Shown here one piece after another: positions 24,201 through 27,200 of a stretch of DNA of 64,000 nucleotides. Made by a program: the position numbers. The stretch is taken from the NCBI GenBank assembly GCA_046597055.1, contig JBKJLC010000293.1:43974-107973 (forward strand), given 5' to 3'. How positions within the stretch are numbered: position 1 is the stretch's first letter; each line of letters starts with the position of its first letter. Origin of the DNA: Kofleriaceae bacterium (lineage in GTDB: Bacteria; Myxococcota_A; Polyangia; Haliangiales; Haliangiaceae).

Positions 24201-27200
24201 ACACGGTTTGCAGCCATGCGCCTGACTCTTCGGCCACGAGTGCGTGGTGGTGGACCCGGGGGGATTCGAACCCCCGTCTCTGCTGTGCGAGAGCAGGATC
24301 TTGCCGCTGGACGACAGGCCCGGAAGGAACACGAGCGGCCCTGACGGGAATCGAACCCGCCTGGATCTCATAGACAGTGAGAGAACGTCACCAGACGTAT
24401 CCAGGGCCGTGAACGAGAGACGAATGATGTTGGTGGAGTCGGACGGATTCGCACCGTCGTCACTGACATGCCGAGCCAGTGTTCTGCTGTTGAACTACGA
24501 CCCCGGGGTCCCGTCGATGGGAATCGAACCCACCTGGTACTGGGAGACAGCCAGCTGACGTCACCAGACGTCTCCGACGAGCAGACAGACGTGGAGCTGG
24601 AGGGAATCGCACCCCCGTCGCTGGCATGTCGGACCAGCATTCTGCTGTTGAACTACAGCTCCTCAGTCGGAATGACAGGACTTGCACCTGCAGCCTCACC
24701 GTCCCGAACGGCGCGTTCTTCTATTGAACTACATCCCGAGGCGGACGAGGGCCCGACCCGGGGGGGCCGGTCGGACAGGTCCTCGTCCTGTGGAAACATG
24801 AGAGCTCGGCCGCAGGCGCCGCCTGACGCGAACGTAGTGAGCGGAAGGAAAGGGAATCGAACCCTCGACACATGGATCCTGTGCGCGCGATTAGCAGTCG
24901 CGGTCCTCGACCAGCCGGACTCCTTCCCGAACCGACCCACGACGGACGCTGACTGTCGACCGAGATCGGCAGCCGGGCTCCGGGGTGGGTATCGGTTTGC
25001 GGAGGGAGAGGGAGTCGAACCCCCAAGGCATCTCGAAGATGCTCGCGCGGCTTTCGAAACCGGCACCGTCGCCACATCGGCTTGCCCCTCCAGATCGATG
25101 CCTCACGCGCCACCCTGCTGGCGCCACGACCGGGGCCATCACTCCCTGGTCGCGGCGCTCCGCCGCCGCCGCCCACCCGCCGCCACGTGTGTCAACGCGA
25201 GAGAGTCACGAGGCCAGCTCCCCGTCGCTCTCGATCTCGCCGGTCCAGTACAAGTAGTCACGCCACGCGTCAGGCATCGACCGCGTGCTGACCCTGATCG
25301 TCACCGCCGGCACCCAGGTCGGGCGCGCCGGCTCCATCCGCAGCTTCATCCCGGCCTCGGCCGGCGTCCGGTTGCCCTTCGATCCGTTGCACGGATAGCA
25401 GCAGGTCACGATGTTCTCCCAGGTGGTCTTGCCGCCGCGGGCACGGGGAACCACGTGGTCGTAGGTCAGCTCCGCCAGCGTGCACTTGGTCGCGCAGTAC
25501 TGGCACTTGTAGCCGTCACGCGCGTAGATGTTCACGCGCGAGAACTTGACGGGCTTGCGGTATCGCCGGAACGCACGGATCAACCGCACGACCGCCGGCA
25601 CCTTGATGATGAGCGTCACCGCTCGGATCTCGGCGTCGTACTCCTCGACCACCTCCACCTTGCCGAGGGTCAGGAGGGTGATCGCCCGCTGCCACGGGAT
25701 GACCTTGATGGGCTCGTACCCCTGCGACAGGAGCAGCGTCGTCGCGTGACTCATGACGGTCCGTGTTCCTTTCCCCGGTCACTGTCTTTCAGGCGCGCCC
25801 CGGTGCCAGCGCGCCATCGGCCCACGACGTGTGGGCAAAAACTGCGTGTCGTGCCCTCCGTCGGATTCGAACCGACACTGCCCAGATTCTGAGACTGGTG
25901 ACTCCTTCCAGTTGGTCTAGGAGGGCGTGGAGTGATCGACGGGACTCGCACCCGCTAGGACGAGGTTCACGGCCTCGCGCCTGGACGACTTTGGCTTCGA
26001 TCACGGTCCGCCCGGGAGGAATCGCACCTCCGTCGTCCGGTTATCGGCCGGGTGCTCTGCTGTTGAGCTACGGGTGGGAAAGACTGGGGTGGGTGGCCTG
26101 GATTCGAACCTGGCATCTGCGGCTCCCTGAGAACCCTCTTCTGACGGCCCGGTGACGGGCAAGCTGACGAGGAGGGGCCATAACCGCCGTCCTGCCACTG
26201 GACGACACCCACGTACGAAGTAGCAGTGCAGGCAGCTGGACTCGAACCAGCGTCACACGCGTTAACACGATAACCATCCAGCGTCGGCCCGCGACCGGGC
26301 GAGGTGAGTACAGGACGGATCCACGTTGCGCTACCGGGCTGAGCTACACCTGCGAAGAAACACAACACGAGTCGTGTGGACGGCCGGAGTCGAACCGGCG
26401 CGTGCGGTTTGCGACGATAACCGACTTCGACGGCCCGTGACCGGGCGAGGGTTGTGAAGACGAGATCTTTCCGCCGTCCTACCGTTAGACGACGTCCACG
26501 TGCGTGCAGGTGGCTGGATTCGAACCAGCGGCCAACGGATTGATAATCGATGACCATCCGACATCGGCCCGTCGCCGGGCGAGGTTGTGAAGGACGGGTT
26601 TACGTTGCTCTACCGGACTGAGCTACACCTGCAAAGAAAAACATGCGTCTGGATGACTGGAATCGCACCAGCGGCCTCGTGATCCCCGAACACGCGCCCT
26701 GCTCCTGAGCTACACCCAGATGGGGCGGGACTTTGGATTCGAACCATGTAGACCGATAACCATCCATCGTTCGGCCCGTTTCCGGGCAAGGGCACTTTGA
26801 TAGACGGACTCGTCCCGCCAGAAGTCGCAACGGAAGGACTCGAACCTTCACCGGCGCGGATATGAGCCGCGCGTCCTCGCCCGAGGTCGCTGCGATGGGG
26901 CAACGGCGGGAGTCGCACCCACTGACCGGCGGGAACCCCGCCGGTCCTCCACGCGAACTCGTTGCCACGAGCACGCCGCCAGAGAATCGAACTCTGCAGT
27001 CCGGGGTTGGAATCCAGACTCTTCCCAGAAGGCGACGCAAGTTGCAAGCATCAACATGTCACTTCCACTCCCCTCCAGTTACAGCTCGAGAATAGAAGTG
27101 GCGATCGTGCCACCGACAGGATTCGAACCCGTACCGACGACGTTCGTAGCGTCGCGTCCCATCCTCGGGACGGTGGCAGACAGGCAAGTGGCTGTGTTGG

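Follow-up and report, generated by a model that had tools for sequence, protein, structure and literature searches.

Genomic context of Ro60

The stretch of DNA analysed here (the window) comprises 64,000 nucleotides of a contig from a Kofleriaceae bacterium, and it holds the sole TROVE gene of the genome. This gene encodes a Ro60 protein of 590 amino acids as listed, of which residues 59-589 match the structures PDB 9nen, 1yvp and 2nvo with E values from 1e-128 to 1e-130, and it lies amid an array of tRNA genes on the same strand. Each anticodon of the array is present elsewhere in the genome too, and the array tRNAs are only 46-64% identical to those counterparts. The main genes of the locus are:

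23837..30388, minus strand: tRNA array around Ro60, about 6.5 kb with 25 tRNAs called by ARAGORN
25206..25754, minus strand: HNH endonuclease open reading frame within the tRNA array (Pfam HNH_5, 4e-16)
26007-26077: tRNA flanking units A-D on the side of unit D (Rfam, 52.1 bits)
26647-26719: tRNA-Pro(GGG) flanking units A-D on the side of unit A (ARAGORN)
27645..29417, minus strand: Ro60 gene (Pfam vWA_Ro60, 8e-64; TROVE, 5e-45)

Within the array, 1 kb downstream of the Ro60 gene, four tandem RNAs of about 125 nt, here called units A-D, occupy 26085-26632 on the minus strand. An earlier survey of the genome had placed four tandem RNAs between two tRNAs at 26083..26637, which is right to within 5 nt.

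Anatomy of the tandem units

Units A-D share one plan, consisting of a 7-bp acceptor stem that is present in the MFE fold of each unit, a D arm, and a T arm with the T loop GGTTCGA, while the anticodon position is taken by a bulged arm of about 45 nt that is capped by a GC hairpin with a tetraloop. The survey's finding of acceptor, D and T arms plus a GC hairpin in each unit could be reproduced in all four. The scores given below are those of the covariance model R1, which assigns 93-120 bits to units A-D and at most 52 bits to the ordinary tRNAs of the same genome.

26505..26632, minus strand: unit A; acceptor GCAGGUG/CACCUGC, D arm, T arm, discriminator A; R1 118 bits
26554-26597, minus strand: Ro module of unit A, with the distal hairpin at 26567-26580 and the loop GCGA
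26375..26499, minus strand: unit B; acceptor GUGGACG/CGUCCAC, basal stem GCGG/CCGC; R1 118.3 bits
26227..26353, minus strand: unit C; acceptor GCAGGUG/UGCCUGC (two G.U pairs), 5-bp basal stem; R1 120.1 bits
26088-26212, with CCA at 26085-26087, minus strand: unit D; acceptor GUGGGUG/CACCCAC, discriminator C; R1 93.3 bits

The distal hairpin reads GCCCG-N4-CGGGC in all four units. Unit B has a second type of D arm (GUCU..GGAC), and unit D, with a basal stem of 6 bp, folds as a clean cloverleaf plus the long arm, its T stem containing one A.A mismatch or an additional base. The long arm shows the characteristic Ro helix of Y RNAs, in which a strand of the GNCGAAN0-1G / GGUCCGA type faces a strand of the CACAAC..UUG type across an asymmetric internal loop. 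The motif GGGCCG(A/U)NG, described earlier as invariant, is exact in A, B and C and has its G one base later in D; its equation with the published GNCGAAN0-1G holds exactly for unit B (GUCGAAG) and otherwise in the window only for unit E described below, as A and C differ (GCCGAUG, GCCGACG) and the units without the exact form are one base off. The pattern GGGCCG-N4-12-GGTYA, which begins with the same six letters, is present 8 times in the window where 1.72 would be expected; five of the eight lie at 26271-27370 on the Ro60 strand.

None of units A-D is called as a tRNA by ARAGORN in the window. The best match of the Rfam tRNA model to the window copies covers part of unit A at 25.1 bits (cut-off 29), and the best match of Rfam YrlA reaches 31 bits against a cut-off of 69. 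The latter figure is the one reported before; the match spans the T arm of tRNA-Pro together with the D arm of unit A and is a dimer artefact. The statement that the RNA belongs to no Rfam family is correct for the window copies and has to be narrowed for relatives, four units of which pass the tRNA family RF00005 (cut-off 29) at 39.6-50.2 bits, with the arm treated as an insertion.

Further Y-RNA-like elements beside Ro60

The survey counted four units and missed two further elements:

26722..26819, minus strand: unit E, a fifth copy with an 8-bp acceptor stem and no D arm; R1 55.9 bits, fold z-score -2.67
27178..27378, minus strand: unit F, candidate for a classical open-ended Y RNA; MFE -92 kcal/mol, z-score -3.18

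Unit E has a weak T stem and a Ro module like that of A-D (GCCCGGAAACGGGCCGAACG, an exact GNCGAAN0-1G), and in all five units A-E the module is capped by a 4-nt loop. Unit F is of another kind. It begins immediately after a tRNA-Glu, and in its Ro module the 5' strand of the RNA (CGGGCCGGAAUGUGUUGGUUACCG) pairs with the 3' strand (CCAACACAGCCACUUGCCUGU), the two enclosing a multi-helix core, so that a Ro helix made by the RNA's own two ends is found in unit F and not in units A-E. Across 17 sequences, covariation is seen in the terminal stem and in three of the inner helices. BLAST homologues of unit F, which mostly begin 0-28 nt after a tRNA, are present in 25 of 80 Ro60 loci, and 7 of 20 further loci of the family have one as well; unit F lies nearer to Ro60 than A-D do and is kept also in loci without tRNA-order units.

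Compensatory changes among relatives

Minimum free energy folding of single units is noisy, with z-scores from -0.4 to -3.2, and we therefore relied on covariation instead. In a family set of 57 copies from 30 loci, 97.5% of cells are paired, compared with 30-43% in slid controls, and compensatory changes are seen in 22 of 31 pairs; a wide set of 104 copies from 56 of 80 Ro60 loci yields 96.1% and 26 of 31, respectively. A MAFFT/RNAalifold alignment of 33 units, unfitted to any model, recovered the acceptor, D, stem-2, distal and T helices with compensatory changes in 22 of 27 pairs. Covariation backs all helices except the base of the long arm, which is poorly conserved and had already been singled out by the survey as the weakest part. 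The arm sequence itself is near-invariant and forms the most conserved part of the RNA, and the consensus also retains nucleotides of the tRNA elbow, with GUAGCUCA..GG.AGAGC in the D arm (GG in the D loop) and GGUUCGA.UCC in the T arm (UUCGA in the T loop). In most of the 104 copies the distal stem is capped by a short loop such as UUCG, GCAA or GAAA.

Gene order and the relation to YrlA

The bacterial Y RNA YrlA (RF02553), as portrayed for Salmonella Typhimurium and Mycobacterium smegmatis in parts of PMC4201824 and bioRxiv 10.1101/312249, likewise resembles tRNA in its D arm, T arm and acceptor stem. YrlA and the units share the layout of the Ro module and similar sequence within it, and the genes of both adjoin Ro60, often in tandem copies. 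The consensus order of YrlA is Ro 5' strand, T arm, closed acceptor hairpin, D arm and Ro 3' strand, unlike the units, in which the 5' acceptor strand is followed by the D arm, the closed Ro arm, the T arm and the 3' acceptor strand. An HMM of the 3' half of the RNA matches phage YrlAs from HMM position 1 at E 3.8e-11 to 1.9e-6, and an HMM of the 5' half matches immediately behind it in four of five phage loci. Because the two halves match in swapped order, the order of this RNA is, at the level of sequence, a circular permutation of YrlA, as the survey had proposed, and a direct comparison with the YrlAs of Gordonia phage Cashline agrees. This phage carries two true YrlAs beside an annotated Ro gene, and their module strands are near-identical to those of the units. 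The HMM of the arm 5' strand alone gave no matches in the phage loci and that of the 3' strand alone gave only E 0.011-0.11, at the expected places. Stem, loop and stem follow one another with the same lengths in the Rfam YrlA consensus as in the Ro module of the units, and the Rfam consensus of nematode sbRNA has the same Ro motif. The arm of the units and the stem by which YrlA binds Ro60 are homologous.

The order would be a misreading if the units were ordinary tandem YrlAs taken in the wrong register, each RNA reaching from distal loop to distal loop and using the spacer as its acceptor loop, and this we consider very improbable. Full-length, sub-threshold matches to Rfam YrlA do lie over unit junctions (18.5 bits in the window, 33-40 bits at locus L073), and weak YrlA matches near Ro60 in Sorangium, Chondromyces and Plesiocystis are among the entries of Chen 2014, Table S1 (PMC4201824). 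The table gives Sorangium AM746676.1 7886582-7886771 and CP003969.1 9586756-9586878 and also has Stanieria rows; such hits, termed 'YrlA with long acceptor stem', may be this RNA in the other register. The acceptor strands of adjacent units in tandem arrays also pair with each other, on average at 6.25 of 7 positions and completely in 11 of 20 junctions, so that tandem arrays alone leave the register unfixed; as the mean for random unit pairs is 5.04 of 7, the comparison of own with neighbour pairing was abandoned as an indecisive test of register in favour of single-copy loci. The acceptor covariation put forward earlier thus backs the helix and requires those loci to fix the register. There are 25 of them, 24 with their own acceptor stem paired 7/7 and five without any nearby tRNA, and they exclude the YrlA register since they cannot be read that way. 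In the window the junctions pair at 5/7 (A/B), 5/7 (B/C) and 7/7 with four G.U pairs (C/D), compared with 7/7 for the units' own stems. The array starts and finishes with complete tRNA-order units, the distal loops are 4 nt long, and CCA is encoded at the rate of tRNA genes (17 of 104 units; 178 of 870 tRNAs of the same loci). The Cashline YrlAs present the opposite picture, in which the RNA's own terminal stems differ between units and covary, and the acceptor hairpins are capped by GCGA and UUCG.

Linkage to Ro60 and distribution

Among the matches listed, long R1 matches are found in 53 of 138 family genomes, namely in 49 on the Ro60 contig at most 2.5 kb from the gene, in three on other short contigs and in one genome without Ro60, or in 52 of the 85 family genomes with Ro60 and one of the 53 without. 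The view that this RNA accompanies Ro60 is therefore upheld, and so is its spread beyond Myxococcota, as units are present in 56 of 80 Ro60 loci and in loci labelled with six further phyla. In five loci of other phyla, where a tRNA array is absent, a single unit stands 80-235 nt upstream of Ro60. Desulfonema magnum 4be13 (NZ_CP061800.1) is a cultured carrier, with units at 4611-4734, 4758-4894 and 5008-5137 of locus L103, a short way upstream of its Ro60 gene. The unit is not obligatory for Ro60, since it was not found in 24 of the 80 Ro60 loci elsewhere or in 17 of 19 further Ro60 loci of the family examined. One 82%-complete genome (G136) has a unit in a tRNA array and no Ro60 within 12 kb or in the rest of the genome. 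No canonical YrlA at gathering score was found as a partner in 20 loci without units; sub-threshold YrlA cores of 32-42 bits occur at three loci (L084, L093, L113). In three metatranscriptome runs of one study, compared with 23800-30400, pieces 95-99% like the Ro60 gene represent a related Ro60 mRNA, and the matches to the units are T-arm-like stretches of 19-27 nt that are uninformative on expression or ends.

tRNA-like features of the units

The survey held that the anticodon arm has been replaced, which is true of units B, C and D and has to be qualified for the class, as a local anticodon-like hairpin beside the arm can form in 53 of 90 copies, the control value being 30.5. The proximal junction may be built with a basal stem or as a five-arm form that includes this hairpin. 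These 7-nt loops have U at position 2 in 45 of 53 and A at position 6 in 39 of 53; they differ between close relatives (CAU versus CUU), so that no decoding identity is kept. The pair G3.U70 occurs in 17 of 104 copies, all 17 with discriminator A, and the two together are the alanine identity set; unit A of the window has A3-U70. An intron in a tRNA, of group I or any other kind, was considered for the insert and rejected, as it is 45-60 nt long, contains the Y-RNA module and matches no Rfam intron family.

Comparison with known RNAs

To our knowledge, two layouts of bacterial Y RNA are known, YrlA and Yrn1, in both of which the RNA ends form the Ro60 site, and in every characterised Y RNA the Ro module consists of the paired 5' and 3' ends, whereas the module of the units is closed by a loop. 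Yrn1 of Deinococcus radiodurans, as outlined in Chen 2014 (PMC4201824), has a D-like arm followed by a T-like arm, the order seen in tRNA and in the units, and its Ro stem stands in the place of the acceptor stem and is made by the RNA ends, whereas that of the units is on the anticodon side and closed. A two-piece Ro-binding tRNA mimic has an open 7-bp acceptor stem with CCA, as do the units; its pieces are joined by base pairing, whereas the Ro end of the units is covalently closed and one piece results. Common to tRNA (RF00005) and the units are the acceptor, D and T arms, the variable loop and the tRNA-gene-like use of CCA; unlike tRNA, the units have an arm of about 45-60 nt where the anticodon stem-loop belongs.

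There is a parallel in tmRNA, a tRNA-like non-coding RNA that is known in both gene orders, standard and permuted two-piece, in different lineages. Like the units, tmRNA (RF00023, RF04321) combines an open acceptor end with a large non-tRNA domain on the anticodon side, and Chloroflexia units share with it the acceptor GGGG..G / CUCCACC with G3.U70. Unlike tmRNA, the units have no mRNA-like reading frame and their partner would be Ro60 rather than SmpB; their best score with a tmRNA model is 37.9, below the cut-off of 47.

Proposed function and possible evolutionary scenario

The evidence supports a widespread, Ro60-linked class of RNAs in tRNA gene order that carries the Ro60-binding module of YrlA and other Y RNAs as a closed arm. 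Units A-D, and with them unit E, probably belong to the YrlA lineage as Y RNAs that associate with Ro60 and keep the native gene order of tRNA. We infer their transcription, RNA ends, Ro60 binding and effector. The units would be transcribed along with the tRNA array on the Ro60 strand; RNase P would cut on the 5' side of the 7-bp acceptor stem, and the 3' ends would arise by tRNA 3'-end trimming, with CCA either added or, as in unit D, encoded. The mature RNA of about 125 nt would have an L-shaped tRNA body whose acceptor end is free, and the anticodon-side arm would serve as the Y-RNA docking helix (GC stem, asymmetric internal loop, 6-bp stem and tetraloop) on which Ro60 docks. The tRNA-like body may act as an effector-binding module, as proposed for YrlA, and recruit a tRNA-handling factor or gate Ro60.

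Unit F could instead be the real Ro60 partner and units A-D could have another role, in which case the latter would be tRNA-like RNAs of an accessory array whose job is independent of Ro60, for example chargeable tRNA bodies with a use other than translation, or RNAs that act as decoys for nucleases attacking tRNA or sense them. The position of unit F nearer to Ro60 and its presence in loci without units agree with such a division, as do the anticodon-like 7-nt-loop hairpin possible in about half of the copies, the alanine identity set of the 17 copies and the one unit that occurs without Ro60. We nevertheless think it unlikely, because the part of the RNA conserved best is the arm homologous to the YrlA Ro stem, because the single units of the five loci in other phyla stand upstream of Ro60 without an array, and because long matches are so rare in family genomes that lack Ro60. 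That the units are functionless, decaying tRNA genes broken by an inserted hairpin element is suggested by their setting among redundant and divergent tRNAs, by the missing D arm of unit E and by the poor conservation at the base of the arm; in loci labelled with seven phyla, however, compensatory changes preserve all the main helices, and this, together with the near-invariant arm sequence, makes it extremely improbable.

If the units are Ro60-associated Y RNAs as proposed, they represent a third layout, in which a closed arm on a tRNA body with its acceptor end free is the docking site, so that Ro60 would be able to dock without RNA ends. Such a Ro60 partner would be matured by the tRNA machinery and possibly be chargeable, and it would be the intermediate that the proposed descent of YrlA from tRNA or tRNA dimers has so far lacked. 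The class would also fill a gap, as Chen 2014 (PMC4201824) mentions few YrlAs in delta-proteobacteria and none of the 151 genomes sampled from the phylum reaches the 69 bits that Rfam sets for YrlA.

It is possible, if doubtful, that the tRNA order is ancestral to the YrlA lineage and that the free CCA end is in use, with the subset bearing G3.U70 and A73 being charged with alanine. A tRNA would then have gained a Ro60-docking arm on its anticodon side, and tandem arrays with pairing neighbour acceptors would have given rise to the permuted YrlA by a shift of the processing register, an origin that the 'dimeric tRNA' idea, as sketched in Wang 2018 (bioRxiv 10.1101/312249), would predict. Alanyl-tRNA synthetase would act on the G3.U70 and A73 subset (17/104) as it does on tmRNA, and an aminoacylated Y RNA would tie Ro60 to the translation or tRNA-repair machinery of an accessory, horizontally moving island of Ro60 and tRNA array. 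The units also tie Ro60 to accessory tRNA arrays, which a section of PMC8421152 links to survival under translational stress. HNH genes among the tRNAs, as in the array described here, are also seen in the Ro60 loci of Streptomyces phages.

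The Ro60 locus and its tRNA array

The Ro60 gene is the sole TROVE gene of the 8.4-Mb assembly and is embedded in a tRNA array, together with four tandem RNAs (units A–D), two further carriers of the same arm (units E and F) and two tRNA-like elements.

Features of the locus (window coordinates)
23837–30388, minus strand: dense array of 25 tRNAs (ARAGORN)
25206–25754, minus strand: HNH endonuclease ORF within the array (Pfam)
25932–26005, minus strand: tRNA-like element 1, 7-bp acceptor-type stem and GGGUGCGA(G/C)UCCC T loop
26088–26212, minus strand: unit D, then CCA at 26085–26087
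26227–26353, minus strand: unit C
26375–26499, minus strand: unit B
26505–26632, minus strand: unit A
26722–26819, minus strand: unit E, 8-bp acceptor stem, no D arm, same arm, exact GNCGAAN0-1G
26896–26966, minus strand: tRNA-like element 2, same stem and T loop as element 1
27178–27378, minus strand: unit F, candidate classical-topology Y RNA of about 190 nt, starting right after tRNA-Glu
27645–29417, minus strand: full-length Ro60 gene inside the array (Pfam vWA_Ro60 8e-64, TROVE 5e-45; PDB Ro60/Rsr chains, E ~1e-130)

All 25 array anticodons are duplicated among the 66 other tRNAs of the genome, and identity to the same-anticodon counterparts is only 46–64%; the array is thus an accessory and foreign-looking set. 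On the same grounds, it looks like an acquired one. Phage Ro60 genes (355 phage records) are likewise placed amid tRNAs and HNH genes, and two Streptomyces phage loci (L131, L132) show the same tRNA, HNH and Ro60 mix as the window. Long accessory tRNA arrays have been tied to translational stress, and a term search of the available text of that paper gave no mention of Y RNA or tRNA-like RNAs (PMC8421152). Neither tRNA-like element is called by ARAGORN or Rfam; the loop of element 1 reads GUG by eye, and tRNA-His is otherwise absent from the array.

Anatomy and covariation of the units

Units A–D lie head-to-tail 1 kb downstream of Ro60, between tRNA-Pro (26647–26719) and a tRNA at 26007–26077, with spacers of 5, 21, and 14 nt. 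From its 7-nt acceptor strand, each leads over two bases into a D arm and a short basal strand, and then runs outward through a 6-nt stem strand and a loop strand of about 10 nt to the hairpin GCCCG-N4-CGGGC, returning by CCG plus 3–6 nt and the stem return strand. Between this arm and the T arm, which has GGUUCGA, lie 8–20 nt and a variable-loop-like GG(U/C)C; the acceptor return strand and the discriminator complete the unit. The coordinates and description of the four units in the survey's finding are borne out; the motif GGGCCG(A/U)NG, there called invariant, occurs exactly in A, B, and C, and in D it is displaced by one base.

A covariance model built from the window copies with a structure written by hand (R1) scores units A–D at 93–120 bits, against at most 52 bits for the ordinary tRNAs of the genome. 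In 138 Haliangiaceae genomes, matches of 95–164 nt reach about 55–120 bits, against at most 59 bits for tRNAs of 71–73 nt. Because the R1 alignment and that of a second model, R2, are fitted to the model, an unfitted alignment was used as a check; the acceptor, D, stem-2, distal, and T helices reappear in it.

Pairing and compensatory change in three alignments of the unit
R1-fitted, 57 copies from 30 family loci: 97.5% of cells paired, 22/31 pairs compensatory
R2-fitted, 104 copies from 56/80 Ro60 loci elsewhere: 96.1% of cells paired, 26/31 pairs compensatory
MAFFT/RNAalifold, unfitted, 33 units: cells paired not applicable, 22/27 pairs compensatory

Compensatory change in the 57-copy alignment extends to 7/7 acceptor-stem pairs and 6/6 pairs of stem 2, and slid controls pair in only 30–43% of cells. 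The basal stem of the long arm, already suspected as the weak part, proved to be so, being 77–84% paired in the fitted alignments and absent from the helices that the unfitted one recovers. The strand just 5' of the variable loop can pair in two competing ways: with the strand that follows the D arm, giving the basal stem (at least 4/5 pairs in 50/94 copies, control ~31), or locally, as a hairpin whose loop has 7 nt (at least 4/5 pairs in 53/90, control ~30.5). The hairpin loop is anticodon-like: of the 53 copies, 45 have U at loop position 2, 39 have A at position 6 and 36 have A at position 7. In the window, units B, C, and D are compatible with a basal stem of 4–6 pairs and unit A with both pairings; for the Desulfonema unit, MFE folding gives a five-arm form. 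Four units of relatives exceed the cut-off of the Rfam tRNA model (39.6–50.2 bits), which takes a 2-bp anticodon stem and reads the interior as a 62-nt insertion. The "anticodons" vary among close relatives, and therefore no decoding identity is seen.

As for the acceptor, G3.U70 occurs in 17/104 copies, all 17 with discriminator A, which is found in 41 of the remaining 87. By the established alanine identity rule, such copies could be chargeable, which we note as a lead only. Chloroflexia units (L073:5373–5901, L074, L086, L088, L092) have a tmRNA-like acceptor (GGGGACG/CGUCUCC, G3.U70, A73), and it is because of this closeness that the Rfam tmRNA model reaches 37–38 bits on them, below its cut-off of 47.

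Register and relation to YrlA

The DNA of a tandem array can be read as tRNA-order units or as YrlA-order units running from distal loop to distal loop. Own acceptor strands pair 7/7 in 98/104 copies, but this leaves the register undecided, since neighbours in a tandem array can also pair, the 3' strand of one unit with the 5' strand of the following one, to almost the same degree (mean 6.25/7, 7/7 at 11/20 junctions; random unit pairs 5.04/7). What decides for the tRNA order is that 24 of 25 single-unit loci have their own 7/7 acceptor stem, five such loci (L080, L083, L089, L096, L115) having no ARAGORN tRNA and thus no neighbour able to supply a half; that short loops, UUCG, GCAA, and GAAA among them, close the distal stem; that CCA follows the discriminator in 17/104 units, a rate similar to that of same-locus tRNA genes (178/870); and that the window array has whole tRNA-order units at both its start and end.

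The Rfam consensus of YrlA (RF02553) runs from the Ro-stem 5' strand through the T arm, a closed acceptor hairpin and the D arm to the Ro-stem 3' strand, and its stem, loop and stem lengths match those of the window-unit arm, strand for strand. Gordonia phage Cashline has two tandem true YrlAs upstream of an annotated Ro-like protein gene, with mutually different, covarying terminal stems of their own and with GCGA and UUCG as the closing loops of their acceptor hairpins. The module strands of these YrlAs, ..GCGGGCCGGAGUUGAUCGGUUACC.. and ..CCCGGUCGGCACAACAUGCCCGC.., are very similar to ..CGGGCCGAUGUCGGAUGGUCAUCG.. and ..CCCGUCCUUCACAACCUCGCCCG.. of unit A. Half HMMs were built from the 104-copy alignment. 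The HMM of the 3' half, which spans the distal 3' strand to the acceptor 3' strand, matches phage YrlAs from its first positions (E 3.8e-11 to 1.9e-6); with ordinary tRNAs, its match starts no earlier than the T arm. The HMM of the 5' half matches 5–27 nt behind the YrlA matches of the 3' half in 4/5 phage loci. The halves therefore stand in swapped order, and the circular permutation relative to YrlA proposed in the survey's finding is borne out by sequence.

The Rfam consensus of nematode stem-bulge RNAs, which are Y RNA relatives, has the same motif pair. One Cashline YrlA (L128:2819–2946) scores 31.8 bits with this model (RF01656, cut-off 38) because the Ro-helix motif is common to both.

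In its available text, Chen 2014 (PMC4201824) reports few YrlAs in delta-proteobacteria, dimeric tRNAs dropped as false positives, RNase P cleavage and CCA gain for M. smegmatis YrlA, and, in Table S1, weak YrlA matches near Ro60 in Sorangium, Chondromyces, and Plesiocystis; these delta-proteobacterial rows may be the tRNA-order RNA in the YrlA register. According to excerpts of Wang 2018 (bioRxiv 10.1101/312249), most YrlAs "likely resemble circularly permuted tRNAs", and an origin from dimeric tRNA is discussed there; a similarly partial text of the Thermus phage Ro60 paper has Ro60 binding hairpin-containing Yrl RNAs with a CGAA motif. Full-text searches of a collection that lacks most subscription journals gave no description of a tRNA-order Y RNA, and an earlier mention is therefore possible.

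Linkage to Ro60 and distribution

The units are a conserved structured RNA family, the tRNA-order counterpart of YrlA, and are linked to Ro60. Among the matches listed, beyond which the search gave 98 lower-scoring ones, long R1 matches occur in at least 53 of the 138 family genomes: 49 with units on the Ro60 contig (within 2.5 kb, same strand), 3 with units on other short contigs and one (G136, completeness 82%) without a Ro60 match. In the last genome, the unit (L152, G136:C8, 5824–5946; 81 bits by R2) belongs to a tRNA array, with no Ro60 within 12 kb. Ro60 is present in 85/138 genomes. Two unpublished genomes are part of these figures, G037 in both the unit and the Ro60 count and G038 in the Ro60 count alone. 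Of the roughly 33 family Ro60 loci with no listed match, 19 were examined and gave one 64-bit unit, one unit cut by the contig end and 17 loci in which the tRNA-order unit is absent. The unit is not universal among Ro60 loci.

At a threshold of 58 bits or more, 56 of 80 Ro60 loci of species-representative genomes carry 104 units. By record titles, whose taxon labels are mostly those of metagenome bins, the carriers include Kofleriaceae, Haliangiales, and Polyangiaceae, many Chloroflexota, Thiotrichaceae, Parabeggiatoa, Abditibacteriaceae, Armatimonadaceae, one Actinomycetota MAG, one Cyanobacteria MAG and the isolate Desulfonema magnum.

Other carriers of the Ro module

In unit F, the Ro module, as we call the arm, arises from pairing between the RNA's own 5' and 3' strands, which enclose a multi-helix core (MFE −92 kcal/mol, z-score −3.18). 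Unit F matches no Rfam family, and BLAST homologues, mostly starting 0–28 nt after a tRNA, occur in 25/80 Ro60 loci, each with a Myxococcota or delta-proteobacteria label, and in 7/20 further family loci; the terminal stem and three inner helices covary (17 sequences). Outside the units, 60/80 loci carry the motif GGGCCG-N4-12-(GGUUA/CGRUUA) on the strand of Ro60, among them 16/24 unit-less ones, some of which have 3–6 GGGCCG..GG(G)UUA copies upstream of Ro60 (L084:1463–2254, L093:5072–5643, L110, L113:5209–5445, L097:4848–5839). Among these modules are YrlA-order RNAs below the Rfam cut-off (32–42 bits in L084, L093, and L113).

Since the module recurs outside the units, even in unit-less loci, it is the module and not the tRNA body that is the constant companion of Ro60, and A–D are consequently not the sole candidate Ro60 partners in the locus. 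It is this companionship that offers the best, indirect, evidence for the module as a predicted Ro60 site. The main rival, that unit F is the true Ro60 partner and that A–D have a Ro60-independent role, we consider rather improbable. The units are probably Y RNAs bound by Ro60 and matured like tRNA.

No module copy lies 150–300 nt upstream of the Ro60 start in the window; in several Myxococcota loci, a further GGGCCG..GGGUUA copy was observed at this distance, at L040:5694/5852, L038:5831, L044:5808, L053:5844, L067:5848, and L068:5848.
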